Notes: generated by a model from the sequence alone, not told the origin. 64,000 bases of DNA from a virus (IMGVR_UViG_2728369482_000003:1-64000); one strand, 5' to 3'. Shown: positions 1 to 15,596, counted from the stretch's first letter. Made by a program: numbers and translations.

Positions 1-1224
1 ATGTTACAGCAGGTAAAATCGATTCTACAGAAGAAAAAACGGGCCACCGGACTTTATCCGATCATGCTACGGATCCGGCCCGAGGGAAAGGAACAGCTTA
101 TTTCTACTGGCTTTACCAGTAAACTGACCGACTGGGATCAGAAGAAAGGCCGGCCGAAGAAGTCTCATCCGTTATTCGAGGAAATGATGCTCAAGCTGCC
201 CGAACTGGAACTATCGGTAGCCAAGGGCTTAACCAACAGTCAGACGGGTCAATCCAGCCGGCAGATACTGGAAAAAGCCGTCAATAAGGCTTCAACGGGA
301 AGCCAGACCGGGGTACTGGAATACACCCGGGAAACGATCAAGCGGCTCAAAGCCGAGAACCGGCATGGTTATGCCAATGCTTTCCGGGGAATGGAGCTGA
401 GTCTGGAAAAGCAGTTAACCAAACGACAGACGGATTTCCAGTTTTCCCAGCTAAGCCCCCAGTTCATCCGGGCCTGGGAAAGCAGTCTCCGCCAGAAAGG
501 ATGTAAAGACACGACTATCTCAGCTTATTTCCGGGCTTTCCGGACGATGATCGGTTACGCCCGGTTGGAAAAGCTGACCACGGTTAATCCCTTTTCCGGG
601 GAGGATAAATTCAATATGAGTCCATACGGCAGTATCAAGACGGCCAAACGGGCTATTGAACGGGACAAGATCGAGCTACTCCACCAACTGGAGCTGGAAG
701 AAGATAGTCCGGAGTTTCACGCCCGTAACTTTTTTATGTTTTCCTTTTTCACCCGGGGCATGAACCTGATCGACATTGCCCGGCTGGAACCCAAGCAGAA
801 AGTCGGGGACTATTTGGAATACCGCCGGGCCAAGACTCATCAGTGGCAACGGGTGTTTATGCTAGATCCGGCCAAGGATATCTGGAACTATTACCTGGAA
901 CGGATGAAGAAAGGTCAGCAAACGGTCTTCTGGTTTATCTTCTGGCCCAGGCATAATACACCGGAACTACAACGAACCCGGATGCAGACGGTACTCAAAC
1001 AGATCAACAAACTACTACGGAAACTGGCTAGTCAGGTTGGGATTGAAACCCACCTGACGACCTACGTAGCCCGGCATTCGTTTGCTTCCAGTCTGAAACA
1101 CCTGGGTATTCCCACGGATCAGATCTCGGAGCTACTAGGTCATGACTCGGTAGAAACGACCCGGATTTACCTGGAGAGTTTCTCGGACGAGACCCTCAAC
1201 GAAGCCGTTCGAAAGCTACTGTAA
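1..1224 (+). CDS. int: Tyrosine recombinase/integrase, Bacteroidota type (arm-binding + SAM-like + catalytic domains)
   Basis: N-terminal YPIMLRI..ISTG arm-binding motif; catalytic-region motifs RGMNLIDI, YRRAKT, TTYVARHSFAS, LLGHDSVETTRIYL. Confidence 0.93.
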   Translation: MLQQVKSILQKKKRATGLYPIMLRIRPEGKEQLISTGFTSKLTDWDQKKGRPKKSHPLFEEMMLKLPELELSVAKGLTNSQTGQSSRQILEKAVNKASTGSQTGVLEYTRETIKRLKAENRHGYANAFRGMELSLEKQLTKRQTDFQFSQLSPQFIRAWESSLRQKGCKDTTISAYFRAFRTMIGYARLEKLTTVNPFSGEDKFNMSPYGSIKTAKRAIERDKIELLHQLELEEDSPEFHARNFFMFSFFTRGMNLIDIARLEPKQKVGDYLEYRRAKTHQWQRVFMLDPAKDIWNYYLERMKKGQQTVFWFIFWPRHNTPELQRTRMQTVLKQINKLLRKLASQVGIETHLTTYVARHSFASSLKHLGIPTDQISELLGHDSVETTRIYLESFSDETLNEAVRKLL

Positions 1225-1500
1225 CTGAATAATCTTTTTGGCTTCATAAACCTTTAACTGGAATGGATCTAGCAACTGAAAACATTTAAGATAAACCGAG
1301 ATAGGTCTTTTACGATCGAACCGATCGTCTATATAATAAAGGTTTTCACACTTAATCCAAGGACTTGAAACGTTGTTAATAGGACCTAATTCAACAATCC
1401 TGTAAATTTTACCGATTCGGTAATTAGAACCAAGTAAATCTGGATCTTGTCGATTAATCAGTTGAACCAAATCTCCTATGTTTAGCTCTTTAAGATTCAT
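1216..1500 (-). CDS. DPFQ-family paralog 16
   Basis: LNIGDLVQLI...IGKIYRI...CFQLLDPFQLKVYEAK; stop overlaps the integrase stop. Confidence 0.85.
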   Translation of the reverse strand: MNLKELNIGDLVQLINRQDPDLLGSNYRIGKIYRIVELGPINNVSSPWIKCENLYYIDDRFDRKRPISVYLKCFQLLDPFQLKVYEAKKIIQLQ

Positions 1501-1792
1501 GGTTTTTCAGTTTCTTTTTGGCTTCTAGTATTTTGGCTTGGAAAGGATCAATGGGTATAAAACAGTTTTTTTCAATCCAAACCTGGTTACCATATCTCTT
1601 TGTTTTCGGATCATCATTGGAGTTTATTCCGGCTACTTTTATCCATTCTCCATTAGCCGAATCGTTTGAGGTATAAATTTGGGTTATTCTGTAATGAGCC
1701 AGCCGAGTCCAATTAGTATATAGTTGAAGCCATTGACTATCCGTATTGACTAGCTGAACCCAATCACCGGGTTTTAATCTGTTAACTTCCAT
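1490..1792 (-). CDS. DPFQ-family paralog 15
   Basis: LKPGDWVQLV...CFIPIDPFQAKILEAK. Confidence 0.85.
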   Translation of the reverse strand: MEVNRLKPGDWVQLVNTDSQWLQLYTNWTRLAHYRITQIYTSNDSANGEWIKVAGINSNDDPKTKRYGNQVWIEKNCFIPIDPFQAKILEAKKKLKNHES

Positions 1793-2057
1793 GTGTCAAC
1801 TGGTTACGTGCCTGAAGAACTTTAACCTGAAATGGATCGAGTAATCTGAAATTCCGAAGATAAACAGCTGTCAATGTAACAGAAGGATTTGAATATGGGT
1901 CTATACAGTTAATCCAAGAGGACGGGATACCCATATAAGGTCCTAGTTTTGTTACCTGATAAAGTTTACCAATTTCATAACCAGTTCCATCCAAATAGTC
2001 ATCCTCAGCTTTAACCAACTGGACCCAGTCACCTACTTTTAGATCTTCAGGATTCAT
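1782..2057 (-). CDS. DPFQ-family paralog 14
   Basis: LKVGDWVQLV...NFRLLDPFQVKVLQARN. Confidence 0.85.
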   Translation of the reverse strand: MNPEDLKVGDWVQLVKAEDDYLDGTGYEIGKLYQVTKLGPYMGIPSSWINCIDPYSNPSVTLTAVYLRNFRLLDPFQVKVLQARNQLTHGS

Positions 2058-2340
2058 GATTTAATCGGTTACGGGCTTCTAAAACCTTGAGTTGAAACAG
2101 ATCTATTAGCCGAAAACAATCCAGGTATATCTGAGCGAGGTTACCGTCTACGGTTGTGGAGATTGCCTTGGTAAATAGAAGACCCTCACAGCTAACAATT
2201 GGACGAGGAGCTGTTGGAGCATATACCCGAATCACTTTGTAAATCTTACCCATTTCATAATTGGTGGCTTTCAGATCGTTATCATCATCGGTGATAAGCT
2301 GAATAAAATCACCAGGTTTCAAGGTTTGAGCATTTATCAT
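2047..2340 (-). CDS. DPFQ-family paralog 13
   Basis: LKPGDFIQLI...CFRLIDLFQLKVLEARN. Confidence 0.85.
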   Translation of the reverse strand: MINAQTLKPGDFIQLITDDDNDLKATNYEMGKIYKVIRVYAPTAPRPIVSCEGLLFTKAISTTVDGNLAQIYLDCFRLIDLFQLKVLEARNRLNHES

Positions 2341-2608
2341 TAGCTTTCAGTTGATTACGAGCTTCCAGAACTTTTACCTGGAACGGGTCCAGTTTTTCAA
2401 AACAGCAGTTATAAATCCTGGGGAATTTTCTATAGGTTTTCCAGGGATCAAGATCTTTTTTGAACGGTAGTCCGAGTACTTCAAACCAGTCAGGTTGAAC
2501 TACTTTTCCAACCGTGTATATACGATTTAACTGGTAGTCAGTATCGAACAGTTGGTTATCCTCTTCCCGAACCAATCGTACTTTATCACCGGTCTTAAAC
2601 TGGGTCAT
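2309..2608 (-). CDS. DPFQ-family paralog 12 (start corrected to ATG 2608)
   Basis: MTQFKTGDKVRLV...CFEKLDPFQVKVLEARN; the ORF-track start at 2686 overlaps the previous paralog. Confidence 0.85.
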   Translation of the reverse strand: MTQFKTGDKVRLVREEDNQLFDTDYQLNRIYTVGKVVQPDWFEVLGLPFKKDLDPWKTYRKFPRIYNCCFEKLDPFQVKVLEARNQLKANDKCSNLETW

Positions 2609-2861
2609 GATTGGACTGGGTTTGTTGCTGACGAATTTGAAGTACTTTGGCTTGAAAGGGATCGAGCTTTCTGAAACACCGATCAAATAGTAAGATTGGA
2701 CGTCTACTGTGTCTATAACTAATTCCGTCTACCTTGATAAATTCAGATTCAACTTCAACGACCCGATAAATCGTTCCGATTTGATAAGAATGAGCTTTAT
2801 TTAACCAATTATCATCGTCATTGACTAGTTGAACCCAGTCACCAATGGCAAAGTCACTCAT
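2595..2861 (-). CDS. DPFQ-family paralog 11
   Basis: FAIGDWVQLV...CFRKLDPFQAKVLQIR. Confidence 0.85.
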   Translation of the reverse strand: MSDFAIGDWVQLVNDDDNWLNKAHSYQIGTIYRVVEVESEFIKVDGISYRHSRRPILLFDRCFRKLDPFQAKVLQIRQQQTQSNHDPV

Positions 2862-3171
2862 AAGTCGGTTGGTTTAACTGGTGAAGAGCCTGGGCAACCC
2901 GGGCCTGAAACGGGTGAATCCGTTCAAAACAACGGCTATAAATCCGGGGATGGGTGTGATAACTGGTTACTCCGTCGAGCCATACAAGACCATCTAATTC
3001 GATGTAATGATTGAACCAGAAAAAGGTGGGTCCCGTAGCCCCTATTTCAGGGATTTTCTTTACCCGGTAAATCCGCCCGATTTGATAGTTGGTTTTTTCT
3101 AATTCCTCATCCGTTGTATCGACTAGTCTGACAAATTCACCCACCTGTAGATCGGTTAAATCATTGTACAT
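2854..3171 (-). CDS. DPFQ-family paralog 10
   Basis: LQVGEFVRLV...CFERIHPFQARVAQA. Confidence 0.85.
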   Translation of the reverse strand: MYNDLTDLQVGEFVRLVDTTDEELEKTNYQIGRIYRVKKIPEIGATGPTFFWFNHYIELDGLVWLDGVTSYHTHPRIYSRCFERIHPFQARVAQALHQLNQPTYE

Positions 3172-3439
3172 TGGTCAGGAGTTGATTACGGGCCTGGAAG
3201 ACTTTAAGCTGGAATGGGTCTAGTTTTCGAAAGCAATGAACATAAATTCCAGGTTCACCGGTACCATTACTAAAAACTGAAATCAGATCTTTACATCGGA
3301 TAAAACTGTACGGTCTTCCCATTACCGGGCCCAATTCGGATACCTGGTAAACTTCATTCAATCTACCTGTAGAACCGTTCAAATCTCGATCATCCATACT
3401 CACCAGTTGTACCCAATCCCCTACCTGAATATTATCCAT
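3161..3439 (-). CDS. DPFQ-family paralog 9
   Basis: IQVGDWVQLV...CFRKLDPFQLKVFQARN. Confidence 0.85.
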   Translation of the reverse strand: MDNIQVGDWVQLVSMDDRDLNGSTGRLNEVYQVSELGPVMGRPYSFIRCKDLISVFSNGTGEPGIYVHCFRKLDPFQLKVFQARNQLLTNVQ

Positions 3440-3677
3440 TGGTTTTGGTAGTTAAGAGTTTGTCGCGGGTTAGTCTAACTTTCGTTTGAAACGGGTCCTC
3501 GAGCCGGAACCAGGATTTAGGTAACCAGACCGAACTGATTCCGTCGTCCCATTCGGCTTGGATTAACAAATTACTTGAGTTACTTATCCGGTAACTTAAA
3601 CCAGTGGTAACTAATCCTTTAGTGTATAAAGCTGACTCACACACCACCCAATCACCGACTTCAAAGGGTCTATCCAT
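3432..3677 (-). CDS. DPFQ-family paralog 8
   Basis: FEVGDWVVC...WFRLEDPFQTKVRLTR. Confidence 0.85.
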   Translation of the reverse strand: MDRPFEVGDWVVCESALYTKGLVTTGLSYRISNSSNLLIQAEWDDGISSVWLPKSWFRLEDPFQTKVRLTRDKLLTTKTNG

Positions 3678-3957
3678 TTTCCTGTAGTTGTTGAAGGGTT
3701 AACCTGACTTTCGTCTGGAATGGATCTTCCAGCTCAAAATTCTTTGACTCTAACCAAAAATGAGTATATCCATTACTTGGCTTTAAATCAGTTTCTGAAT
3801 TAAGGCCCTTTACAGCTAAATGCCATTTAGAGTCTTTGTCTAATTCAGTTATCTGATAAACATTTTTAAGTTGGTAACTAGGATAGTACTTTTTTAATAT
3901 AAAATCATCGTCAGCCACCAGTATAACCCAGTCTCTTACCTTAAACCGATTATTCAT
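3670..3957 (-). CDS. DPFQ-family paralog 7
   Basis: FKVRDWVILV...NFELEDPFQTKVRLT. Confidence 0.85.
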   Translation of the reverse strand: MNNRFKVRDWVILVADDDFILKKYYPSYQLKNVYQITELDKDSKWHLAVKGLNSETDLKPSNGYTHFWLESKNFELEDPFQTKVRLTLQQLQENG

Positions 3958-4207
3958 TATACCTCTGGATTTGAGAAAGTGTGTTCCTTATTTTGGTTTG
4001 AAAGGGGTCTTCCAGTTGAAAACGGGAAGCGGCCAACCAAATCCCATCCCCGTTGTGATCTTTTTCCCAGGTTCCTTCTATAGAATCATCGATCACATCA
4101 GTTACCCGGTAGGCTTTACCTTGCTGAACCTGGGACTTTTTAAAATCCCCCGTGTACATAAAATCTATACAGACTACCCAATCTCCTTTCTTAAACGGAT
4201 TGTCCAT
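3950..4207 (-). CDS. DPFQ-family paralog 6
   Basis: FKKGDWVVC...RFQLEDPFQTKIRN. Confidence 0.85.
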   Translation of the reverse strand: MDNPFKKGDWVVCIDFMYTGDFKKSQVQQGKAYRVTDVIDDSIEGTWEKDHNGDGIWLAASRFQLEDPFQTKIRNTLSQIQRYNE

Positions 4208-4454
4208 GCTGCTGACGGGTTTGGTAGATTTTGATTAGAAACGAATCAACGGGTTCAAAACAAGCAGCCAGTAACGGAATCCGGGTATTTTGAAATCCCG
4301 GTTTTGTGTTAGTTACCGTTAGATACTGGGACGAGACAAGAGTAGCTACCTTTTCGATCTGATGATAGGAACCAATGCTAAGACCTGCCATTATAGCTAG
4401 TGAATCTGTCAGGGATACACAACGAACCCAGTCTCCGACTTGAAAATTAGCCAT
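4191..4454 (-). CDS. DPFQ-family paralog 5
   Basis: FQVGDWVRC...CFEPVDSFLIKIYQTR. Confidence 0.8.
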   Translation of the reverse strand: MANFQVGDWVRCVSLTDSLAIMAGLSIGSYHQIEKVATLVSSQYLTVTNTKPGFQNTRIPLLAACFEPVDSFLIKIYQTRQQHGQSV

Positions 4455-4707
4455 GTTGGTTGGATGAATTTAACCGGTGAGCTTCGAGTACCTTGAGCTG
4501 AAACGGTGTGATTGGACGGAAATAACTGGTTGGGTGATAAAAGTTTTTCTCGGTAAACTCATACCAGCTTTTTATACCAACAGTAATAGATACTACCTGG
4601 TAAATTTGACCAAGCTGGATGGAATCCTGTTTAAAGTAATCGTCATCCTCTTCTCCCTCTTCAGGTAAAGCTGTGCATAGTACCAGTTCTCCTTCTTCGG
4701 GCAACAT
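4447..4707 (-). CDS. DPFQ-family paralog 4
   Basis: PEEGELVLC...LGQIYQV...YFRPITPFQLKVLEAH. Confidence 0.8.
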   Translation of the reverse strand: MLPEEGELVLCTALPEEGEEDDDYFKQDSIQLGQIYQVVSITVGIKSWYEFTEKNFYHPTSYFRPITPFQLKVLEAHRLNSSNQHG

Positions 4708-4711
4708 TAGA

Positions 4712-4993
4712 TTATTTATCAGTTTTCATAGTTTGTAAGGCTTCCCGAACCTTGGTTTGGAATGGATCCTCGATTCGAAAGTTGGAAGCTAATAGGTAAT
4801 AATGACCGTGAGACAGGCTGGGTAATGGATCTTTGGTTGAATTGATACCCTCTACCAAAATGTAGTTTGCCGCTGGCTCTACATGACTGATTTTGTAGGC
4901 TTTACCAATCTGGTATCGTCCTGGGTAATATTTCCGCAGTACCTGATCCTTATCATTCAGCAGGACTGCCCATTTTTCAACTGGATCAGTCAT
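4712..4993 (-). CDS. DPFQ-family paralog 3
   Basis: YQIGKAYKI...NFRIEDPFQTKVREA; resembles 3670-3957 (shared L(R/K)KYYP, G(I/L)NS). Confidence 0.85.
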   Translation of the reverse strand: MTDPVEKWAVLLNDKDQVLRKYYPGRYQIGKAYKISHVEPAANYILVEGINSTKDPLPSLSHGHYYLLASNFRIEDPFQTKVREALQTMKTDK

Positions 4994-5256
4994 GGTTGAT
5001 TGAGTTGATCCCGGACTTGTCGAACCTTTGTCTGAAACGGATCTTCCTTGATAAAACAGTAGGAATAAATCCAGAAATCAAAGTCCATGTTAGGATGCTT
5101 TTTAAACTGTCTACAACGAACACACTGTGTATATCCTAATCCCCAATTAAGATCAGTTACCTGATATCGGTTTCCAATTTCAAGTCCTACGGCTTTTGAA
5201 TACGGATCATCCAGATTGACACAAACAATCCAGTCACCTACTTCGAAATCAGTCAT
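4990..5256 (-). CDS. DPFQ-family paralog 2
   Basis: FEVGDWIVC...CFIKEDPFQTKVRQVR. Confidence 0.85.
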   Translation of the reverse strand: MTDFEVGDWIVCVNLDDPYSKAVGLEIGNRYQVTDLNWGLGYTQCVRCRQFKKHPNMDFDFWIYSYCFIKEDPFQTKVRQVRDQLNQP

Positions 5257-5512
5257 GGTTCAGTAGTTTATTCCGGGCTAGGCGGACTTTGGTTTTGAAG
5301 GGATCTTCCGCTTCAAATAGGAAAGAATTATGAAACGTTTTATGACCTATTATAAGTCCTTTACATCGAATAAATGTACCAAATAAAGTAACTTCCTCTA
5401 CTTGAAATACCTGCCCTAACAGATCCGTTATATCGGGAACTTCCTGATTTTCGGGATTAGTTAAAACAACCCAATCTCCTTTTTTCAGTTGCAAGGCTTC
5501 TTTTTTTCTCAT
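5249..5512 (-). CDS. DPFQ-family paralog 1
   Basis: LKKGDWVVL...LFEAEDPFKTKVRLARN. Confidence 0.85.
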   Translation of the reverse strand: MRKKEALQLKKGDWVVLTNPENQEVPDITDLLGQVFQVEEVTLFGTFIRCKGLIIGHKTFHNSFLFEAEDPFKTKVRLARNKLLNHD

Positions 5513-5801
5513 CGAGTATTTCCCTTCCTTGTTTATCCAGTTTTTCCCATAACCCCCAGACCAGATCGTTCTGATACACCGTTCTGGTCATTAAGCCAAT
5601 CCGGTTCAGCTTTTCGTAGCAGGCCAGAATCTCGGGAATTGTCCCGGCTTTCCAGATTTGATTCTGTAGAGCCAGCCAGTCGTTGACAAACTGATCTTTC
5701 TGGGCTCTACGGGGCTTTAGGACAACCGATCTGTACCAGCCGTATCCCAAAGCCCCCAGTAGCAAACAATTGATTACTGCCCACTTAAAAAGCTCGTCCA
5801 T
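5457..5801 (-). CDS. Hypothetical protein with N-terminal transmembrane helix
   Basis: WAVINCLLLGALGYGWY hydrophobic segment; in leftward operon. Confidence 0.65.
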   Translation of the reverse strand: MDELFKWAVINCLLLGALGYGWYRSVVLKPRRAQKDQFVNDWLALQNQIWKAGTIPEILACYEKLNRIGLMTRTVYQNDLVWGLWEKLDKQGREILDEKKRSLATEKRRLGCFN

Positions 5802-6238
5802 GCGGATGGTCCGGTTAGTTTCTGTTTATTCTCTTCCTGGCTTTTAGTCAACAGGAATGATTCAACCTGCTCTCGGAACGTAAAGGGTAGATCACTCACG
5901 TGCTGCTCCAGGTATTGTTCCATCAGATTCACAACCTCAGCCTGGATATAATACGGTTTGGTCAGTTGCTGAGCCCGGTCATCATTAGTGAAGATACCCA
6001 GATAGGAATCCCGGTGATGGCCGTATACGACTTCCAAATCGTCCAGGTAAAACGGACTGCTCTGCATTTCGGAAGCTCCACTAACCCAGACATAAGCCCG
6101 ACCATCGTCGTAGATATGTTTCTCCCGGATGAACAGGTAAAATTCCAGTTTCATCATGTACTCTTCCAGCAGACTACTGGGTTGAAAACCTTCCCGGAGC
6201 CGGACAATTACATTTTTGGCTACCTCGTCTTTTCTCAT
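5774..6238 (-). CDS. Hypothetical protein
   Basis: 154 aa ORF coupled to the upstream gene by an ATGA overlap. Confidence 0.7.
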   Translation of the reverse strand: MRKDEVAKNVIVRLREGFQPSSLLEEYMMKLEFYLFIREKHIYDDGRAYVWVSGASEMQSSPFYLDDLEVVYGHHRDSYLGIFTNDDRAQQLTKPYYIQAEVVNLMEQYLEQHVSDLPFTFREQVESFLLTKSQEENKQKLTGPSAWTSFLSGQ

Positions 6239-6681
6239 GATACCTTGATTTTGTCAAACTTGATTCCATACCCACCCCAGCCATGTTTTGGCTCGATAGA
6301 CTTCTCTCCCATCACGGCTTCCCAGATTTCTTCAGACGTAAATTCTACAGCAGCTTCTTCCAGTAACCAATCAATCAGATGTCTTTTACTTAATGAATAT
6401 CGGATCAGGTCATAATTGGTATCGTCCCGACCCAGATAGGTGTTGGTAATTAAAACCGAGTAGACGTAGGTTTCCTCGTCTGATTGAATACGAGTAAGTT
6501 GGTAACCATCCGCTTCCAAGGCTTTCAACATCCGATAAGCCAGGTAGGTAGCATTTTCGTTATCCGTTGGAAACCAGTCTACGTAAGCTTCTGTCATCAA
6601 ATCAAGAGCCTGGTTAATTTCATCCCGTTTGTCAACCGAGACGGTTTTATCGGCCCAATCGGGCAGTGGAAATAGATTCAT
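6235..6681 (-). CDS. Hypothetical protein (start corrected to ATG 6681, MNLFPLP)
   Basis: ATGA overlap with the stop of 6678-6992. Confidence 0.7.
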   Translation of the reverse strand: MNLFPLPDWADKTVSVDKRDEINQALDLMTEAYVDWFPTDNENATYLAYRMLKALEADGYQLTRIQSDEETYVYSVLITNTYLGRDDTNYDLIRYSLSKRHLIDWLLEEAAVEFTSEEIWEAVMGEKSIEPKHGWGGYGIKFDKIKVS

Positions 6682-6992
6682 AGTTTGCTTAGTTGTTCCT
6701 GTAGATAAGCCCGGTACCAGGTATGGCAGAACTCCACGGCCTGATCCAGTTTTTTGAATTCTTTGGTTGGAATATCTTTGATCCAGGCAGAAACCGATTG
6801 GACATCCCATTGAGATGATTTTGTTCGAGGACATACCCACCAATGTTTCTTTCGGATTGTTTTTATTCCAGTATCCCTTGGAACATTATCGTGGCCTTTC
6901 AGAATATCAAAGGGCATAAAACCCTCCCAGACTACTTCTTGGTAATCATCGGAGTCCGGGTAATTATCCAGCCGTTTCAGCGTGTAATTCAT
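6678..6992 (-). CDS. Hypothetical phage protein
   Basis: 104 aa, ATGA-coupled on both sides. Confidence 0.7.
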   Translation of the reverse strand: MNYTLKRLDNYPDSDDYQEVVWEGFMPFDILKGHDNVPRDTGIKTIRKKHWWVCPRTKSSQWDVQSVSAWIKDIPTKEFKKLDQAVEFCHTWYRAYLQEQLSKL

Positions 6993-7279
6993 GGGTTGTC
7001 AAGTTTAGCTTTAGTCTGAAAGATCTTCCACAGGAATTCAAGTGAGTCTGGTATAGCGTGTAAGTGATGATCTTTTAACCAGTAGGAAAATTGAATCAAC
7101 GAAGAATCTTCAGATTGAAGAATCAGTTTACGTCGGCTATCTACTTTGTAATCATGTTTGACACAATCAGTCCAGTACGAAGCCAAGTTACCCGGAAAGT
7201 CATCATAGTACAGATACCAGGTAGTGGGTTTTTCTACGGTTGTTTCAGTTTGGTTTCCCGGATCAGAAATATCTTCCAT
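6989..7279 (-). CDS. FLWKIF-family paralog 3
   Basis: LILQSED...HHLHAIPDSLEFLWKIFQTK. Confidence 0.75.
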   Translation of the reverse strand: MEDISDPGNQTETTVEKPTTWYLYYDDFPGNLASYWTDCVKHDYKVDSRRKLILQSEDSSLIQFSYWLKDHHLHAIPDSLEFLWKIFQTKAKLDNP

Positions 7280-7467
7280 AGAAAATCGATGTTAGCAGGT
7301 GGTCCGTTTCTATATCTAACTCGTAGGTAGTCCCGAAATAACTTCAGATTTTGTTTGTCTGAACTCTTTAGTAATACCGGACTTGCAATCCGACTAGCAC
7401 TGTTGAAAACAGCGTAACCGTTAAACCAAGTCAAACTGTAAAAAAGACTATATTCCGGAGTTTCCAT
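7234..7467 (-). CDS. FLWKIF-family paralog 2
   Basis: VLLKSSD...GPPANIDFLWKIFLIRETK. Confidence 0.75.
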   Translation of the reverse strand: METPEYSLFYSLTWFNGYAVFNSASRIASPVLLKSSDKQNLKLFRDYLRVRYRNGPPANIDFLWKIFLIRETKLKQP

Positions 7468-7693
7468 CGGTTTCCAACTGTTGTTTGGTCAGGAATACTT
7501 TCCACAGAAACTCAATCGAATCGGGTACGGCTTGAAAGTGATGTTCGTTCAGGTAATGCTTGAATTTCCAGATATTTAGATGATCATCACTTACCAGAAT
7601 TGATTCCAGAATGTAATAACCCTGTGTACCAATCCAGTACCGGTCAACATCTGCATCAGCATCGTAGTAGAGATACCTGAGTTTATCTCTCAT
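7448..7693 (-). CDS. FLWKIF-family paralog 1
   Basis: ILVSDD...HHFQAVPDSIEFLWKVFLTK. Confidence 0.75.
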   Translation of the reverse strand: MRDKLRYLYYDADADVDRYWIGTQGYYILESILVSDDHLNIWKFKHYLNEHHFQAVPDSIEFLWKVFLTKQQLETDGNSGI

Positions 7694-8178
7694 AATCGAT
7701 TTAGAATTCGACCGGCCCGATAAACATGATTATGGGTCAAACCGGCATACGGATCGATCTGAATAAATCGATCGGCCTGCCAGAGTAGAAAGTCAGAATC
7801 ATCATCGAAAATCACGTAGTCAACCGGTTCAATACCGTACTGAGTATTGGTTCTGAGCCACATAAGGACCTCTACTCCCCGAACCCGGTGATCGGTCAAC
7901 GGTGTACAGCCAATAACCCGTTCGTCATAGGCAAACCCGGAATCTCTCAGAACCTGTAAACACCGTTCTTTTCCGCTGGCCCGCCAGGTAGAACTGATAA
8001 CCACTTGAAGCTCGGGAAACTGACTCAGTAGCAGATTAAGGTTATCAATGGTCCGCTGGTCAAAATCAGGTTTATCAGCTGCTACGGCTTCACCAGCTTG
8101 TATCCTGGTGTACCAGTCATGATTGAACAGTTCGTGGTTTAGGACTCCGTCAAAATCAAGGAACAGGTATTGCTTCAT
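7690..8178 (-). CDS. HAD-superfamily hydrolase (Swiss-Army-knife RNA-repair-like HAD domain)
   Basis: LFLDFDGVLN (DxD motif I), VVISSTWR, RGVEVLMWL, YVIFDDDSD. Confidence 0.85.
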   Translation of the reverse strand: MKQYLFLDFDGVLNHELFNHDWYTRIQAGEAVAADKPDFDQRTIDNLNLLLSQFPELQVVISSTWRASGKERCLQVLRDSGFAYDERVIGCTPLTDHRVRGVEVLMWLRTNTQYGIEPVDYVIFDDDSDFLLWQADRFIQIDPYAGLTHNHVYRAGRILNRL

Positions 8179-8221
8179 CAGTTATATCTGGACTGGTTTT
8201 GGGTTGTTTCTTCGTCTACCA

Positions 8222-8464
8222 TTAATGGCTATTTGCTTTTTTAAGAGCCTGTTTTTTGTTCCGAGCCATAATCGTTTTACCCCGGATAACAAATGGGTGA
8301 AGCTGGTTCGAATTATCATTTTTGTACATATCCGATTGATCCGGAGTCATCGGTGGCGGGCTATACGGATTACCATTTGATCCAGTATAGGTTCCGTGGG
8401 TTACTGAACTCATAGCGGCCATAGCTCCCATCATAGCCATCATTCCTTTTAAACGGGAAGTCAT
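8222..8464 (-). CDS. Hypothetical protein with Met/Ala-rich N-terminus
   Basis: MMAMMGAMAAMS; C-terminal FVIRGKTIMARNKKQALKK. Confidence 0.65.
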   Translation of the reverse strand: MTSRLKGMMAMMGAMAAMSSVTHGTYTGSNGNPYSPPPMTPDQSDMYKNDNSNQLHPFVIRGKTIMARNKKQALKKANSH

Positions 8465-8487
8465 AAATCAATTAGGTTTGGTTTAAA

Positions 8488-8523
8488 CGTAAAACGAGCC
8501 GGTCAGCATAACCAACCGGCCCG
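8488..8523 (-). terminator. Rho-independent terminator candidate
   Basis: Minus strand CGGGCCGGTTGG-TTAT-GCTGACCGGCTCG followed by TTTT, just after the 8548-9036 stop. Confidence 0.6.
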
Positions 8524-8547
8524 AAAGTCAGATAAAGCAAATCGGTA

Positions 8548-9036
8548 TTAAGCCGCCAGCAGCATAGGTTCCAGACCCAGACTAACCAGGTCAACTTCGG
8601 TTACCTTGTCCAGTGAATCCGTCCAGTAACCACTGTCGATGAGTCCCTGGGCCAGTTCCCGGTTCAGGTTTTGGGAAAAGCCCGGATTGGCAATCAGGTA
8701 GATCGTTTTCATCGGAGCCAGATCCTCGGATTTCTGGGTAAGCTGATCCCGCAGCAGTTTCAGAGCGATAGCCTTGTTGCGGGCATTCTGGGTCCGCTCT
8801 TCCATATCAGTTACTTTCTTCAGCTGCTCATCCAGTAGCTCCTGAACAACACTGGCATTATCCAGACAACTCTCGAAGGTCTGGGTAGTCAGATCGATTT
8901 CCATTCGAACGGTTTTACCCTTGAGTTGATCCGGCAACAGATCCAGGGCTTCCCGGCGGGCAAATAAACTACGGTTGAACTCCAGAACGGTTACGGCTTC
9001 ATTCTGTTTTACGCTGATATACTGGTCAGAATTCAT
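8548..9036 (-). CDS. Hypothetical protein with central coiled coil
   Basis: 162 aa, followed by a terminator-like hairpin. Confidence 0.75.
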   Translation of the reverse strand: MNSDQYISVKQNEAVTVLEFNRSLFARREALDLLPDQLKGKTVRMEIDLTTQTFESCLDNASVVQELLDEQLKKVTDMEERTQNARNKAIALKLLRDQLTQKSEDLAPMKTIYLIANPGFSQNLNRELAQGLIDSGYWTDSLDKVTEVDLVSLGLEPMLLAA

Positions 9037-9272
9037 TGGTTAGGTAGAATTTGGTTGATTGGGAATAAAAACTGAGCGAATGGTCTACAAAGAAAATCGG
9101 GTTCGATGAAACTACCAACTGGTACAGTTACATCGATTAACAAATAGTTTACATTGTTAGTAAACGGTTTTTGATACCCCATTTAATCCCCTGACCGATC
9201 CGACTTTTAATCCGTACTTCCCCCTACCCCAGGGGTACCCCGGCCGGTTGTAAACCAGCGGTTCGTTTACCG

Positions 9273-9359
9273 TTACTTCGGCAGACTATTCTGAAAACAC
9301 ATCGCCTGCTGGTAGTCCTCGAAGGTATACGGGATACCATCAACAAGAATCTGGTACAT
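9273..9359 (-). CDS. Putative 28-aa microprotein (MYQILVDGIPYTFEDYQQAMCFQNSLPK)
   Basis: Read directly from the minus strand; weak similarity to the 22-aa ORF at 16673-16741. Confidence 0.4.
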   Translation of the reverse strand: MYQILVDGIPYTFEDYQQAMCFQNSLPK

Positions 9360-9371
9360 AGCTAGCTGGTT

Positions 9372-9608
9372 TTAGTTGAGTTGATAGGTTTTGACTTTTC
9401 GGATGGACAGCCACTCGGCTTCTTTCTGGGTAAGTTCCCGTTGCCGGTCCCGGTAGTATAGGTTTACCTGGGACATGGCCAGCAGGGTCAGGATGATACT
9501 GGTTACTCCGCCACAGGCCAAAAGCGATCCGTCGAGCCGGGTATAGCCAATGAGAGCCGATTCACCCATAAGTAAAGCCACAAAGAAAATAAGCCAGGAA
9601 GTTGCCAT
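9372..9608 (-). CDS. Small two-TM membrane protein
   Basis: Two hydrophobic segments followed by a charged tail. Confidence 0.65.
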   Translation of the reverse strand: MATSWLIFFVALLMGESALIGYTRLDGSLLACGGVTSIILTLLAMSQVNLYYRDRQRELTQKEAEWLSIRKVKTYQLN

Positions 9609-9786
9609 TGGATAAACAGTTGATGGGGTTACCGAGTTGATTACGTAGCTTTACACTGTGATGCTGCCGGAAGAGCCGGTCAGGAATACCCCGTGGGTTA
9701 TCCTGGTCTATCACGAGACTAAAAAGCCGGATCTGTTGTCCTTTAAGGATCAGATCCGGCTTCACTGTTTAAAAGGTATTTAGGGA

Positions 9787-10137
9787 CTACAGGTCGATGT
9801 ACTCAATGACTGAACCCGTTGATTCCGGAGTTTTGGTATCAAAGAGACGAATCAATTCAGCCTTTCCATACCTGATGGCTTCTTCGGCGGACTTAAACCA
9901 GGTATCCGAATCCTGGTATCGGTAGTTTGCCGGACCATTTACATACCCCCAGTCACTGGTCAGGGTTTCTTCCAGTAGGTATTGATCTTTTTTAACGAAT
10001 CGATCGTCTATAAGGCTACCTGATTTTATCGGCAGATAGATCCGACACTGGTAATTCAGTTCCGGTAATTTAGCTGTATCCAGCAGCGCATGAACAAACG
10101 GCTTCAATCCAGTAAATTGATTGTCAACAGGTGGCAT
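9787..10137 (-). CDS. KPFV/VIEYxDL-family paralog 3
   Basis: KPFV...WG...F.SAEEAIRYGKAELIRLF...SVIEYIDL. Confidence 0.8.
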   Translation of the reverse strand: MPPVDNQFTGLKPFVHALLDTAKLPELNYQCRIYLPIKSGSLIDDRFVKKDQYLLEETLTSDWGYVNGPANYRYQDSDTWFKSAEEAIRYGKAELIRLFDTKTPESTGSVIEYIDL

Positions 10138-10148
10138 AACGGGTTGGT

Positions 10149-10472
10149 TTACAGGTCTACGTATTCGATTACCGATGATTGCTGGGCTGGCTGGGGTGTA
10201 CCGAAGATGGTCAGGAGTTGTTGTTTACCGTACTCGATGGCTTCCTGGGGTGTGTCGAAGAGTTGATTAACATCAACACGGTTTCTATACTCTTTATTAG
10301 TGAAAGTCCCCCAGACATTATACAAGCTTTCTCCCAGTAGTTTAGTGTTGGGTTTCTGAAATCTCTCCTCTATCTGACTAATTGAATTTACGGGTAAACC
10401 GATTACAGGTATATACTTAATTTCGGGAAGTATTTCCCGGCTGATTTGATAGGTAACAAATGGCTTTTTCAT
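10149..10472 (-). CDS. KPFV/VIEYxDL-family paralog 2
   Basis: MKKPFV...WG...FDTPQEAIEYGKQQLLTIFG...SVIEYVDL. Confidence 0.8.
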   Translation of the reverse strand: MKKPFVTYQISREILPEIKYIPVIGLPVNSISQIEERFQKPNTKLLGESLYNVWGTFTNKEYRNRVDVNQLFDTPQEAIEYGKQQLLTIFGTPQPAQQSSVIEYVDL

Positions 10473-10484
10473 AACTATCCCGGA

Positions 10485-11036
10485 TTACAAGTTGACAAAT
10501 TCGATGACGTTGGTGGATTCAGGCTCCGGTTTACCGAACACTCGTTGTAGCTCGGCTTTTCCGTAGGCCTTGGCTTCTTCGGGGGTATCAAAGATTGCTC
10601 TGCTCATTTTGTACCGGTAGGTATCTTTCTGATTCCTTCCACCCCAACGACTACCCAATCCTTCACTCAATAACGTTTCAACTGAACGGTATTGCTGGAC
10701 AATCATATTACCGCCGGGTTCAGCTGGAATAAAAATACCAGCCTTGTACTTGACGGCTTCTGGGAGCTGATCATCATCGATTAAAGCCGAAACAAAGGGT
10801 TTGTTCATGGGTTTAACGAGTTTGAAACGGGTGTAACGGAAATTCCAGGTATTTATGTCTGTATCACCAATGAGCGTGATGAAATCATTGGCTTTGTTGG
10901 AATAGCCATTGTTAGTAATTTGGTCTACCTGATACTCTTTTCCTTCGACCAACTTAGTTAACGGCTCGGAACAATTGGATGGAGATTTAGCATCAATACA
11001 GATGACCTTGTCACCCGGTTTGAACGGATTAGCCAT
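10485..11036 (-). CDS. Fusion of SH3-like module (DPFQ-family body) with KPFV/VIEYxDL domain (start corrected to ATG 11036)
   Basis: MANPFKPGDKVICID...LVEGKEYQV...RFKLV then MNKPFV...FDTPEEAKAYGKAELQRVFG...NVIEFVNL. Confidence 0.8.
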   Translation of the reverse strand: MANPFKPGDKVICIDAKSPSNCSEPLTKLVEGKEYQVDQITNNGYSNKANDFITLIGDTDINTWNFRYTRFKLVKPMNKPFVSALIDDDQLPEAVKYKAGIFIPAEPGGNMIVQQYRSVETLLSEGLGSRWGGRNQKDTYRYKMSRAIFDTPEEAKAYGKAELQRVFGKPEPESTNVIEFVNL

Positions 11037-11328
11037 GGTGTAACGGGGATTTAGTTGTGGATTACTGTTTAGCTGGGAAGAAGCCGCTACGTCCGTACCG
11101 GTTCTTGAGTACTCGTTCACCCTCAACTGTTCGGTAGTAGATTTTCAGAGCCCGGTATTTCAGGTTATTACCCAGAACAAAGTCAGAGAAGGTTAAGCTG
11201 GCAGCCGGCTTATCAAGTGAGGTATTCAGTAGATCAGTGGTTTCCAGCTCCAGATTGAAGTTTAACTCATTGATTGGGTGTTGAATCATACGGATTGTTT
11301 GGTGGATTGAATAATGGATCAAACAGGC

Positions 11329-11736
11329 TTATTCATCGGTTACAGCCAGTCCTTTTGGAATCAGGTTACCGACGTCGTAGTACAACGACTGAAGCCAGAG
11401 TACGGCTTCGGTAGAGTCACTCAGGTACTCAATTCGTCCAGGGTCCTGATTAAAGTAGTCAATGATGAAATCGTCCGTATGAGCTGATTCTGGATGAGTC
11501 AACCGGAACAGCTCGATAACGTGGCTGATTCGGATCTGGGAGAGTGGTCGAAGAACCGGCTTGACAAAGTTGGGATGTACCGTAGTGGTATAATCCGTTT
11601 TGCCTGGTTCAGTCACCCGGTACGTAATGTGATGACGGGTTAACTCGGTGATAGTGGATCGTTCATTAGTCACGCCCATCCCGTTGATCTCGATGGGTTG
11701 ACCGATGTGGTAATAGGTAATGGGCAGGTAATCCAT
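11329..11736 (-). CDS. Conserved-type Bacteroidota phage hypothetical protein
   Basis: VKPVLRPLS motif and C-terminal WL...YDV.NLI.KGLA pattern. Confidence 0.7.
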   Translation of the reverse strand: MDYLPITYYHIGQPIEINGMGVTNERSTITELTRHHITYRVTEPGKTDYTTTVHPNFVKPVLRPLSQIRISHVIELFRLTHPESAHTDDFIIDYFNQDPGRIEYLSDSTEAVLWLQSLYYDVGNLIPKGLAVTDE

Positions 11737-11746
11737 GGGTTACGGA

Positions 11747-12595
11747 TTAGTTGTGGTACCCTCTTGAAGGCATATTCACTCGTATCGTTTCGTCTTTGAT
11801 AATGGGTTTCTTCCCATTTTTCCGGTAATAATCAGTTTTACTCATGAACGTTGAAAAATCAAGGTTTTCCAATGCCCATTCGACATAGTTTGGATCAATC
11901 TTTTTTATTTCAGCTAAGCTTTTCATCCGATGTTTACCAAATGGAATAACTACACTATCCTTTACGGTTAAAAGATTGATTCTGTGTAAGTTATCGGGTT
12001 GATCTGGTTTACAGAATGTAGCTTCTTTTCGGTTATACGTTTTTAATCGAAGCCTACCAATCTGATATTGTTGCCCCCATTCCCCATGTATGAATTCACT
12101 CTTCATCGTATCTAGTTTGTACTGAAGCCAAGTGTATAATTTTGAGTAATCTCTGGTTACAATGTCAAACGTATTTGTTGAAGGATCATAGTGGGTGTAA
12201 CTCAATGGAGACTTGTTTACACCGTTTAACAGGTAGCTTCCTTTATCTTCAATATGGATATAGTCTCCAATTATCTGATACAAGTCTCCACCACGAGGTT
12301 TGTACTGAATGTTCAGAATGGGTTTGAAATATTCGATTCGTTTTCGTTCGACAGCCGTCAAGTCTGATAAAAACACTTCTTCATACCGGTACCGGGTAAA
12401 GTGTTTATTGGTCGAATGAGCCCCTATCCTTCCCTGTAGATTGGTTGTCTGTCCAATGTAGATCAGAATATTATCGTGATACAGATAATAGATGTATCCA
12501 ATTTCCTTGTGGTTTCTCTGAGGAGCATTGTACCAGTCTGAATAGACAATAAACGGAGCTTCCGGAGTAGTTTCCGGGGTTTGATCAGCCGTCAT
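11747..12595 (-). CDS. GIY-YIG nuclease-domain protein with C-terminal PFGK(H/Y) domain
   Basis: GYIYYL...IYIGQTTNLQGRIGAH...VERKRIEYFKPILN; C-terminal IPFGKHRMKSLAEI...PNYVEW (exonuclease X C-terminal/DUF3820-like). Confidence 0.75.
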   Translation of the reverse strand: MTADQTPETTPEAPFIVYSDWYNAPQRNHKEIGYIYYLYHDNILIYIGQTTNLQGRIGAHSTNKHFTRYRYEEVFLSDLTAVERKRIEYFKPILNIQYKPRGGDLYQIIGDYIHIEDKGSYLLNGVNKSPLSYTHYDPSTNTFDIVTRDYSKLYTWLQYKLDTMKSEFIHGEWGQQYQIGRLRLKTYNRKEATFCKPDQPDNLHRINLLTVKDSVVIPFGKHRMKSLAEIKKIDPNYVEWALENLDFSTFMSKTDYYRKNGKKPIIKDETIRVNMPSRGYHN

Positions 12596-12661
12596 GAAGG
12601 TTGGTGTATTCGGTACGAGTGAGGAAGGAGTCCCGTAGTATCAGGAGTCCTATTAATACAC

Positions 12662-12669
12662 CAAAGATA
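12662..12669 (-). promoter_or_regulatory. Bacteroidota sigma-A -7 element (TATCTTTG) facing the GIY-YIG gene
   Basis: Exact TAnnTTTG match on the minus strand in the divergent intergenic region. Confidence 0.6.
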
Positions 12670-12711
12670 CACTATTACTGATTAACTGTAGTATTAAAAT
12701 GGGGATTGTCG

Positions 12712-12719
12712 TATCTTTA
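12712..12719 (+). promoter_or_regulatory. Near-consensus -7 element (TATCTTTA) 4 nt before the repL-like ATG
   Basis: One mismatch to TAnnTTTG; forms an inverted pair with 12663-12670. Confidence 0.45.
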
Positions 12720-12723
12720 ATCT

Positions 12724-13314
12724 ATGGATACTTTACCGGATCAATTAATGAATCAAACCAAGAATCAATCTTTTCTCCCTGACCAGAACAAGACCTCAAT
12801 CAAGGAACACGGGGCTTACTTCAAAAACCCGTTCGATCTCTTTGGTATCAATCTGAAAGTTGTTCATGAACCAGCCGAAACCTTCGACGGAGTCAATGCG
12901 GATACTGGAGAAGTCATCAAAGGCAGCATTTATGGGAAAACCAAAACGATAGCTCACGACTCAACTCCGTACATCAAGCTATTCCAACCGGAAATGATGA
13001 AGTTTGGTGATTTGGGTGTACCCGGTCTTAAACTGTTATGCTATATCATGTACCGGCTGAAACCACGGCAGGATTTTATTCAGATGGATATCGAAGACTT
13101 TCTCCGGACTGCCGGATACTCCACGATTCCCAATAAACGAGGGCAGGTAAACCGGATTCCGTATTACACAGCCGTAGTTGAATTACTAAACAAAAACTAC
13201 ATTGCCAAGAAGACTGGTGGTGATACCCATTTCTTTATCAATGGCAACCGATTCTTTAACGGAGACCGCAGAACTCACTGGAAACCAGTACTGAGTAGTA
13301 TCGAAGTAGTGTAG
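12724..13314 (+). CDS. RepL-like (plasmid replication protein-type winged-helix) protein
   Basis: PYIKLF...GLKLLCYI...YYTAVVELLNKNYIAK...HFFINGNRFFNGDR pattern typical of the RepL family; lone plus-strand gene in the minus block. Confidence 0.7.
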   Translation: MDTLPDQLMNQTKNQSFLPDQNKTSIKEHGAYFKNPFDLFGINLKVVHEPAETFDGVNADTGEVIKGSIYGKTKTIAHDSTPYIKLFQPEMMKFGDLGVPGLKLLCYIMYRLKPRQDFIQMDIEDFLRTAGYSTIPNKRGQVNRIPYYTAVVELLNKNYIAKKTGGDTHFFINGNRFFNGDRRTHWKPVLSSIEVV

Positions 13315-13451
13315 TAAGTAGTATCATCTGGTGATAGTACTTGGTATTAGTAATCAGTGAGTTACGTCTCGTTCCTTTTTGAATATATTCAACCCGTATT
13401 CCAACGGATTCATCCCGGGTTTTCAACGGGTTCAGACGGGTAAAAATTGGC

Positions 13452-13664
13452 TCAATCGGGATCCCGGTATTCAGTCCGTAGGACATTCATGGCTTCTTCC
13501 CGGGTATATACGGTAGTCCAGCGGCCCAGAACCATCTGATGATCACAAACAGGACAGGTGGTTGCGATGATAACCCAGGGTTTCCCGTCTTTTTCACCAG
13601 GATGGAAATCAACGGATTCAACGGGAATACTGGAAAAGCAACGTGGACAAGGGATGGAAGACAT
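13452..13664 (-). CDS. Small zinc-ribbon protein
   Basis: CPRC...CPVC. Confidence 0.65.
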   Translation of the reverse strand: MSSIPCPRCFSSIPVESVDFHPGEKDGKPWVIIATTCPVCDHQMVLGRWTTVYTREEAMNVLRTEYRDPD

Positions 13665-13854
13665 GAGTCAAACAGGTTTATACGGCTATAACTCAGGAAT
13701 CAACGGGTTTTTGAGGGTTTGGAATGAAGGGCGAAAGGGTGGTTATTCCTTGACTATCAAGCAGTTACGTCCTCAGTCCCGTTAATCCCGTCCGTATTCC
13801 ACCGCTTCCCAGGTATTGTGTTATTCCGGGAATTCATCTGGAATATGTGCGGGT

Positions 13855-14145
13855 TTATTCCGATAAACACTGGATTATTCCGGGATATTCAACGGATTCA
13901 AATCTTCGTCTGTAATCCGTTTCAACCGCAGCGGCGGACCGTCCATCTCCACCCAGTACTCCCTGCAGGCCTTCGATACTGGCATTCAGGGAAGCCAGGT
14001 CAGCCTGTAATACCGGAAGAGATTCACTGGATACCTGGTCATGTTTACCGGTTAATTCGGAGATCATGGTGGTTAATTCATCCCGTTGTTCCAGGTATTG
14101 GTTCAACTGGTTGACAAGGGCAGGACGGTCGTCTGGTGTTTCCAT
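13855..14145 (-). CDS. Hypothetical coiled-coil protein
   Basis: Heptad pattern. Confidence 0.6.
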   Translation of the reverse strand: METPDDRPALVNQLNQYLEQRDELTTMISELTGKHDQVSSESLPVLQADLASLNASIEGLQGVLGGDGRSAAAVETDYRRRFESVEYPGIIQCLSE

Positions 14146-14194
14146 GAGTGATTCGATTGGTTTACCGGTGTAACCGGGTATTGGTTGTCTGGAT

Positions 14195-14389
14195 TCATAC
14201 CTGGTTTGGTTTAGGGATTCGACGGAGTTGCTGGAGTACCCACTGTAGTTCCTGATTCCGGCTGCCTAGGTTGACGACCTCTTCGTAGCGGCTCTGTTGA
14301 ACGGCGGACTCAGCCTGCACCAGGTTATCAGCCATCCGTCCCTGGATCAGATCGACCAGTTGTTTCCGTAGTCTATTACCTGGGTTCAT
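14195..14389 (-). CDS. Hypothetical protein
   Basis: ATGA-coupled. Confidence 0.55.
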   Translation of the reverse strand: MNPGNRLRKQLVDLIQGRMADNLVQAESAVQQSRYEEVVNLGSRNQELQWVLQQLRRIPKPNQV

Positions 14390-14652
14390 TGGTCTAGTTC
14401 AGGGTTAAACAGGAAGGCCAGGTGTGGGAAATCGATTCGCATCCGTTCCAGGTAGTAATCCATGTACCGGTTGTTCCAGTCATTGACGTCCTCTCCTGGC
14501 TGTTGATCGAGCTCGGCCGGTACATCCCGTTTGTGGTTTTTGTGTGGATATCCGTTCAGTTCCGGATACCTGTCGAAATCAAAGCAGTCCTGGCCCAGCA
14601 GTCCGGCTCTCCGTTTAAATCGTTCTTCCGGTGCTTCAGTAGTCTGGTTCAT
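14386..14652 (-). CDS. Hypothetical protein
   Basis: In leftward operon. Confidence 0.6.
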   Translation of the reverse strand: MNQTTEAPEERFKRRAGLLGQDCFDFDRYPELNGYPHKNHKRDVPAELDQQPGEDVNDWNNRYMDYYLERMRIDFPHLAFLFNPELDQ

Positions 14653-14664
14653 GGTTGGTAGAGC

Positions 14665-15057: not shown

Positions 15058-15071
15058 AATAGGTCTCGTAG

Positions 15072-15380: not shown

Positions 15381-15398
15381 AAGGAATCAGTAGTTAGT

Positions 15399-15587: not shown

Positions 15588-15596
15588 AGCCTGTAG

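Follow-up and report, generated by a model that had tools for sequence, protein, structure and literature searches.

The only published anchor that we found in the literature for proteins of the kind described here is the LSm-like family of bacteriophage T4, represented by GoF and MotB.1 as well as Frd.2, which form a bent five-stranded barrel according to Kim et al. (PMC12152347). As described there, the T4 proteins are small early or accessory proteins with a five-stranded barrel of the SH3/LSm type, which occur as several paralogs per genome with very low sequence similarity and are non-essential in the laboratory. Proteins predicted to resemble them in fold class, by this description, were identified in IMGVR_UViG_2728369482_000003:1-64000, the 64,000-nucleotide stretch of viral DNA that was analyzed here and that we refer to as the window. 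In this window, 16 chained genes at positions 1216-5512 on the minus strand encode divergent copies of a small barrel followed by a near-constant C-terminal helix. In the T4 proteins, flexible linkers lead to varied C-terminal domains, and there is no single array, whereas the family described here has one conserved helix and 29 chained copies in total. Neither GoF nor MotB.1 qualified as a sequence relative, since hhalign against the family profile gave probabilities of 0.4% and 1.7%, respectively. Sm and LSm proteins proper were also rejected, since they are distinguished by an N-terminal helix ahead of the barrel and by ring formation, whereas both of our structural models lack an N-terminal helix of at least 4 residues and have their helix at the C-terminus.

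Another point of comparison is DUF4926 (PF16277), a domain of about 75 amino acids (aa) with an SH3-like barrel and a C-terminal helix that is common in the bacterial family of the host, and that was proposed to be the immunity partner of BECR-Tox3/DUF6883 (bioRxiv 10.64898/2026.08.28.747851). DUF4926 occurs singly beside a toxin gene and does not form arrays, whereas the family described here is arrayed. Membership in DUF4926 was rejected because the hhalign probability was 0.8%, no Pfam match to this domain was obtained in the arrays, and no toxin-like neighbor was observed. The internal proteins of T4 were rejected as well; these have an N-terminal capsid-targeting sequence that includes a site for the prohead protease, whereas the constant element of the family is C-terminal and helical. 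The combination of a variable binding body and a constant short C-terminal element follows the same logic as in the poxvirus ankyrin/PRANC proteins and the cellular F-box adaptors, although these adaptors differ from the family in fold, kingdom, and machinery alike.

We estimate a probability of about 45% that the family represents a repertoire of binding modules, each for a different target in the host or in a rival element, which would serve in host takeover or counter-defense. This reading is favored because a fixed core is combined with variable loops on the ligand face, selection acts at the protein level, the genes are chained, the region in which they are located turns over, and the neighbors include conflict-type genes. 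The window corresponds to positions 108,245-172,244 of contig C9 in a genome of 6.57 Mb with a guanine plus cytosine (G+C) content of 54%, and a whole-genome profile search identified 13 further copies at positions 10,560-13,850 of another contig, C19. The 16 copies in the window, here called array 1, and the 13 copies on C19, here called array 2, bring the total to 29, which cover about 7.6 kb of a phage of about 136 kb.

Array 1 was found to consist of 16 open reading frames (ORFs) of 81 to 105 aa each, in agreement with a preliminary description of this DNA, which had reported 16 back-to-back genes of that size, nearly all of them overlapping. Overlaps of 4 to 32 nucleotides (nt) were observed at 14 of the 15 internal junctions, and the remaining junction is a gap of 4 nt (4707/4712). 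The gene just upstream (5457-5801) also overlaps the first gene of the array, and the 3' end of the last gene overlaps the stop codon of a convergent integrase gene by 9 nt. All 29 reading frames of the family are intact, and the antisense strand of array 1 contains short, unconserved frames only. Because stop and start codons overlap and no convincing terminator-like site was found within array 1, the genes are most likely co-transcribed and translationally coupled. A strong terminator-like hairpin of 13 pairs on the minus strand (8495-8523) ends the preceding leftward operon, and the gene 8222-8464, immediately below the hairpin, is probably the first in the operon that carries the array, with position 1216 as the far end of this operon. 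A scan for sigma-70 promoters gave results below the expectation from shuffled sequences, the sigma-70 model being unsuited to this type of host, and no Rfam family was detected at positions 1-17,500 of the window.

The mean column identity across the family was just 27% to 33% in the 3 alignments examined (A1, A3, and A6). The G and D of the motif GDWV near the N-terminus were retained in at least 90% of the copies in these alignments, and a strand with the pattern G..Y.V was common to the family. Toward the C-terminus, the last strand kept its F and the QxKV motif its K in at least 90% of the copies each, and the F of DPF was invariant in 29 of 29. These landmarks confirm the earlier claim of a GDWV start and a near-invariant C-terminal F...DPFQxKV segment around a divergent middle. 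Insertions and deletions of up to about 12 to 15 residues were located between strands 2 and 3 and between strands 3 and 4, which correspond to the n-Src and distal loops (alignment A6), while the RT-type loop after strand 1 was semi-conserved and acidic, with the pattern DDDxxL. None of the family proteins contained a signal peptide.

The 6 copies with the sequence EDPFQTKV (coding strand, family D1) showed synonymous variation at all 8 codons, each of which occurred in 2 to 3 forms (GAA/GAG, GAT/GAC, CCA/CCG/CCC, TTC/TTT, CAG/CAA, ACG/ACC/ACA, AAA/AAG, and GTC/GTT), and the DNA identity over this stretch was 62% to 72%. The proposal that selection acts on the protein rather than on the DNA is thereby borne out. 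No tandem repeat was found in the array DNA with Tandem Repeats Finder, and the longest direct repeats were 39 to 44 nt with 60% to 85% identity. The synonymous codon variation and the lack of long similar DNA repeats point to old or fast-diverging duplications with conservation at the protein level. Purifying selection appears to act on the GDWV strand and the helix as well as on the hydrophobic core.

Two classes of helix were distinguished, here called the T class (12 copies) and the hydrophobic L class (17 copies), and each of them is present in both arrays. With the F of DPF counted as position 0, the T class has E at -3, T at +2, and R at +5 in 12 of 12 copies, while most of the 17 L-class copies have L, I, or V at -3, L, V, A, or I at +2, and L, Y, or F at +5. 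The helix carries a hydrophobic stripe consisting of F0, V/I+4, A+7, and L+11; position -3 directly precedes the helix, and positions +2 and +5 are opposite the stripe by helical periodicity. That the family contains 2 subtypes, as had been proposed, was thus upheld, but their suggested clustering by position fits broadly only, since array 1, in the direction of transcription, has 3 T-class genes, 2 L-class genes, 3 more T-class genes, and finally 8 L-class genes.

AlphaFold2 models were generated from family alignments for one copy of each class, at 1216-1500 (L class) and at 4990-5256 (T class). The mean predicted local distance difference test (pLDDT) score was 88.8 for the L-class model and 89.6 for the T-class model, with predicted template modeling (pTM) scores of 0.78 and 0.76, respectively. 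Strands were assigned by DSSP in the L-class model to residues 11-14, 32-38, 48-56, 66-70, and 74-76, with a helical turn at residues 71-73 and a helix at residues 79-93. The T-class model has the same topology, with 4 strands of at least 3 residues versus 5 in the L-class model. In both models, the last strand is preceded by a short helical turn, and the C-terminal helix begins at the P of DPF. The predicted fold of the family is the canonical five-stranded barrel of the SH3 type with a single C-terminal helix. Structural alignment with VIA-align gave Z scores of 5 to 7.5, a range that is common for small folds, to the barrels of uL24/KOW, NusG KOW, Mind bomb REP, PsaE, and PetP, with a value of 6.2 to Mib1 REP. 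The SH3-like body suggested earlier is hence supported both by the 2 models and by the Z scores to barrels of the KOW/SH3 type. Foldseek searches against PDB and BFVD yielded no match at E <= 0.001, returning generic SH3-like barrels and uncharacterized phage proteins only, and PF27001 (Phage_T4_Y07B) was obtained as a candidate lead from the ESM Atlas.

Two groups of look-alike folds could be aligned through the helix, namely a DUF4926 cluster from Bacteroidota (query residues 5-88, template modeling [TM] scores of 0.62/0.70) and a viral cluster (query residues 4-88, TM score of 0.74). Judging from helical periodicity and the look-alike folds, the helix would be mainly a structural cap, with F0, V/I+4, A+7, and L+11 packed on the barrel. 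The hydrophobic stripe and the look-alikes aligned through the helix lean toward a helix that is an integral part of the fold, which the preliminary description had named as a refutation of its own proposal; only the class-invariant opposite face leaves room for docking.

The genes of array 1, all of which are located on the minus strand, are given here in the order of transcription; genes 1 to 15 were assigned from the ORF and the alignment. The array starts with 3 T-class genes: gene 1 (5249-5512, 87 aa, helix EDPFKTKVR), gene 2 (4990-5256, 88 aa, EDPFQTKVR), which is the modeled T-class copy, and gene 3 (4712-4993, 93 aa), which lacks the GD of GDWV and has VEKWAV instead. These are followed by 2 L-class genes, gene 4 (4447-4707, 86 aa, ITPFQLKVL), which contains an acidic insert and borders the sole gapped junction, and gene 5 (4191-4454, 87 aa), which has the most deviant motif (VDSFLIKIY). 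The T class reappears in gene 6 (3950-4207, 85 aa, EDPFQTKIR), gene 7 (3670-3957, 95 aa), and gene 8 (3432-3677, 81 aa), the last of which is the shortest copy. All remaining genes belong to the L class: gene 9 (3161-3439, 92 aa, LDPFQLKVF), gene 10 (2854-3171, 105 aa, IHPFQARVA), which has the longest loops, gene 11 (2595-2861, 88 aa), gene 12 (2309-2608), gene 13 (2047-2340, 97 aa, IDLFQLKVL), gene 14 (1782-2057, 91 aa), which is nearest to the consensus, gene 15 (1490-1792, 100 aa), and gene 16 (1216-1500, 94 aa), which is the modeled L-class copy. Gene 12 encodes 99 aa from the ATG at position 2608; its frame is open to a TTG at position 2686, and the protein set contains the 99-aa form (P0009).

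The 2 arrays belong to an integrated temperate crAss-like prophage in a tRNA-Arg(TCT) gene. A direct repeat of 49 nt was found in identical form at C9:108,030-108,078 (attL) and C19:14,881-14,929 (attR), and both arrays were assigned to the same prophage because this repeat flanks the element. The attL copy is located about 167 to 215 nt to the left of window position 1, just left of the gene for a tyrosine integrase of the Bacteroidota type (1-1224, plus strand; Pfam Arm-DNA-bind_5, Phage_int_SAM_5, and Phage_integrase), and the attR copy is the 3' part of the intact tRNA-Arg(TCT) gene. The genome contains a single crAss-like portal gene, on C9, and a single gene for a phage-type PolA, on C19. 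Searches with tblastn showed that the portal protein is 37% identical to that of Leptolyngbya phage Lbo-JY46, 28% to that of phage csAssE-Sib, and 26% to those of Cellulophaga phages phi17:2 and phi4:1; these matches covered more than 80% of the query, with E-values ranging from 5e-139 for the best to 5e-59 for the weakest of the 4. The G+C content is 42% to 50% at both prophage ends versus 54% for the genome, and C9 from 108 kb to its end is AT-richer than the host, as are the first 15 kb of C19. The prophage extends from C9:108,079 to the contig end at 228,862 and continues through C19:1-14,880, about 136 kb in total, with the 2 contigs placed in this order across a repeat of 95 nt rather than by reading the direct join. 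This repeat, which forms the last 95 nt of C9 and the first 95 nt of C19, is rich in hairpins. It recurs where C25 ends and where C6 begins, and may be an element resembling repetitive extragenic palindromic sequences or miniature inverted-repeat transposable elements.

Array 1 is located at the left end of the prophage beside the integrase gene and array 2 at the right end, on the same strand, so that only the integrase gene, attP, and one gene for a protein of 231 aa would separate them in an excised circle. No tested pair of copies exceeded 47% identity at the protein level. The copy at C19:11,042 was 41% identical to the copy at window position 3950 and 40% identical to the copy at C19:13,608, the copy at C19:10,560 was 40% identical to the one at window position 3161, and the copy at window position 4990 was 43% identical to the one at C19:13,189. 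Serial duplication, as put forward in the preliminary description, is too simple an account of this pattern, because the array 2 copies are as close to array 1 copies as to their own neighbors. The similarity between arrays equals that within them, and both helix classes are found in both; these observations fit a single old, already diversified cluster that is now split by the integration module better than a simple serial duplication in each array. It was also noted that array 2 is interrupted by an unrelated gene for a protein of 96 aa (C19:11,269-11,559, minus strand) without a Pfam match.

The family was not encountered outside this genome in the genomes, phages, and metagenome protein sets that were searched. 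When 1.84 billion representative proteins were searched with the profile, full-length relatives were identified from this genome only; the 9 outside relatives in this set were all derived from a single Logan contig and were attributed to the same organism, because 2.6 kb of this contig could be aligned to C19 with 100% identity. Among 5.8 billion clusters, a word-based search recovered only this genome's own proteins, each on one contig. No real match to the family profile was obtained when 400 genomes from the bacterial family of the host were searched, no relative was found by motif scans of species genomes and IMG/VR, no meaningful match was returned from 50,697 phage records by tblastn searches with 2 copies, and a megablast search with the first 12 kb of the window gave no match. 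The copies did not match a consistent family in scans of Pfam, PHROGs, and PADLOC, no PDB sequence was matched below E 0.3 in a profile search, and none of the 29 copies matched Pfam SH3_15, the SH3 repeat of Mind bomb and HERC2, at E <= 0.01.

The barrel itself is a separable module, since it is found fused without the DPFQ helix elsewhere in the window and as tandem repeats on other contigs. A 30th copy of the barrel, which lacks the DPFQ helix, is located at 10800-11036 on the minus strand (hhalign of A3: probability 97%, E 8.6e-11, profile columns 3-77). It forms the N-terminal part of the product of the gene 10485-11036, where it is joined to a domain that belongs to a second paralog family (9787-10472); the region 9787-11126 on the minus strand contains 3 paralogs ending with VIEY(V/I)DL, and the barrel is attached to the N-terminus of the one encoded at 10485-11036. 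The only sequence relatives outside this genome are tandem-repeat barrel proteins (P0024, P0025, P0029, P0043, and others), which match the profile from position 2 to about position 60 to 75 with the repeat pattern FKxGDxVxC...GxxYxV...RFxL. In these, 3 to 6 barrels are fused per polypeptide without the DPFQ helix, whereas the family described here has a single barrel with a helix. Their matches to Pfam SH3_15 were weak and below the threshold, and 2 of them are encoded on phage-like contigs of 110 to 125 kb that are dense in small unannotated genes.

To the right of array 1, and upstream of it in the direction of transcription, a gene for a HAD_SAK_2 phosphatase (7690-8178, minus strand; Pfam E 5.6e-25) serves as a conserved anchor of a variable region. 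Another genome from this genus (G328) contains a related prophage (C33:529,693-559,303; locus L041, 543,000-560,500), with 53% identity in the portal protein and 39% in the integrase. In that prophage, the interval from the HAD_SAK_2 gene to the integrase gene is occupied by about 20 small genes that are unrelated to the family. Array 1 is thus located in a hypervariable accessory region, and no match to the family was obtained in the G328 locus even at E 10. A gene of the cpYpsA/SLOG type is located directly after array 2 (C19:10,100-10,573, minus strand). Both HAD_SAK_2 and cpYpsA/SLOG are domain types known from systems of biological conflict and RNA repair.

If the family is a repertoire of binding modules, the copies would be made together from overlapping stop and start codons within a single transcript, with a conserved barrel core and with loops at the classical ligand face of SH3 domains, the n-Src and distal loops, that vary from copy to copy in length and sequence. 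Each copy would then engage a different target in the host or in a rival element, and the whole set would be expressed at once from the hypervariable accessory region. The helix would be mainly a cap, the outward face of which (-3, +2, and +5) would define 2 functional classes and might contact a common partner or another copy. Several points weigh against this interpretation. The copies matched no known anti-defense family in PADLOC, and the location of the arrays at the prophage ends could equally indicate genes that are expressed in the lysogen and serve the host. The argument from the neighboring HAD and cpYpsA genes is weak, and we infer which residues of the helix are exposed or buried from helical periodicity and look-alike folds. 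Furthermore, no target is known for the similarly folded proteins of T4, and the only phenotype, that of the GoF mutant, indicates binding of RNA rather than of protein (PMC12152347).

The latter observation is central to an alternative that we consider unlikely, in which the copies are LSm-like or KOW-like regulators that bind RNA or the transcription or translation machinery and tune the stability of phage or host mRNA, as proposed for GoF of T4. The variant GoF(D25Y) stabilizes an mRNA, and an Sm-like protein of putative cyanophage origin has a C-terminal helix, according to Kim et al. (PMC12152347), and the best structural neighbors of the family are associated with RNA (uL24 and NusG/Spt5 KOW, Z 5.4 to 7.5). 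However, Z scores below 8 fall in the range of common arrangements, the profile comparisons gave the minimal probabilities to GoF and MotB.1 reported above, and the copies, as read by eye, are near-neutral or acidic, which, together with the acidic RT-type loop, is untypical of RNA binders; one RNA function would also hardly explain 29 diversified copies. Another alternative is an array of immunity proteins or antitoxins, where each copy would neutralize a different toxin from toxin-antitoxin or abortive-infection systems or from the polymorphic toxins of competitors, in the manner of the DUF4926 partners of DUF6883 RNase toxins. The DUF4926 cluster aligned through the helix would agree with such a role, as would the position of the arrays at the prophage ends, the finding that DUF4926 genes in this bacterial family, which are present in 43 of 121 genomes, are located directly downstream of genes for proteins of about 111 aa, and the tandem immunity arrays known from polymorphic toxin systems (PMC3482391). 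We nevertheless regard it as improbable, given the negligible profile match to DUF4926, the absence of a toxin gene paired with any copy, and the result that the Pfam DUF4926 model matches 2 other loci of the genome (on C21 and C10) and none in the arrays.

The adaptor model of the preliminary description, in which the constant helix docks diverse barrel-bound targets on a shared hub or drives the formation of hetero-oligomers among copies, likewise seems to us doubtful. It draws on the residues at +2 and +5, together with the one at -3 just before the helix, which by periodicity are opposite the packing stripe and are invariant in the 12 T-class copies and hydrophobic in the L-class copies: the predicted solvent exposure of these conserved residues suggests a shared contact, and the barrel exists elsewhere without the helix. 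A classic hydrophobic stripe at i, i+4, i+7, and i+11, the high confidence with which the helix was modeled, and its counterpart in the look-alike folds all fit an integral cap instead, and no hub candidate was identified. There is a similarly slim chance that the DPFQxKV helix is a docking tag of 2 classes, in which the T and L classes would turn different outward faces (E/T/R and hydrophobic, respectively) to one or two shared hubs or to other copies, so that a library of 29 members on an SH3 scaffold would lead diverse host targets to a common fate. Very unlikely, in our judgment, is a role as virion cargo, where the C-terminal motif would be a packaging signal and the proteins would be ejected with the DNA as first-strike effectors, as are the internal proteins of T4. 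crAss-like phages package and eject cargo proteins, and a variable body with a constant short tag corresponds to the logic of the T4 proteins. The T4 tag is N-terminal and cleaved, however, whereas the motif here is a folded C-terminal helix, and the arrays are located in a leftward early or accessory block with replication genes, outside the structural block, which is oriented rightward. That the genes are decaying or functionless duplicated ORFs, as could be argued from the presence of the family in one genome only, is hardly credible, since every frame is intact, the motif is kept despite saturated synonymous sites, and both models fold with high confidence.

What distinguishes the case described here is a family-specific helix in 2 classes, with 29 copies split across the att site of a demonstrably integrated crAss-like phage. 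If the helix were a docking tag, the family would be a counterpart in a prokaryotic virus of the F-box and PRANC adaptors, in the first crAss-like phage shown to be integrated by its att sites. The presence of an integrase together with matching attL and attR sites in a tRNA gene also bears on how crAss-like phages persist. With a 100% complete genome in 75 contigs, the host is apparently an isolate that has been sequenced, which together with the defined att sites makes the system look tractable. The 2 helix classes on one scaffold provide a sharp internal contrast that is suited to mutational tests, and the related prophage in G328, which lacks the family, offers a natural comparison.

A few additional features were observed in the prophage and in its relative in G328. 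Three adjacent paralogs of 96, 77, and 81 aa, encoded at 6989-7693 on the minus strand of the window, share the C-terminal sequence EFLWKIF and have no Pfam match. The gene at 11147-11374 of the G328 locus resembles, by eye, the gene after cpYpsA on C19, and both products start with MYKLTP. The frame for the large terminase (21759-24923, plus strand, 1054 aa) contains a long insert that by eye is similar to an intein or homing endonuclease, and a tRNA-Phe(GAA) was called in the structural region (39832-39932, minus strand); at 101 nt it is unusually long and may also carry an insert. Finally, the exact 15-nt motif CCGTTTACTAACAAT was present in only 2 copies in the DNA searched, at 9153-9167 of the window (minus strand) and at C19:14,742-14,756 (plus strand). 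Both copies are intergenic, each upstream of a leftward operon; the copy on C19 precedes array 2 and is located just inside attR. The motif may be an operator.

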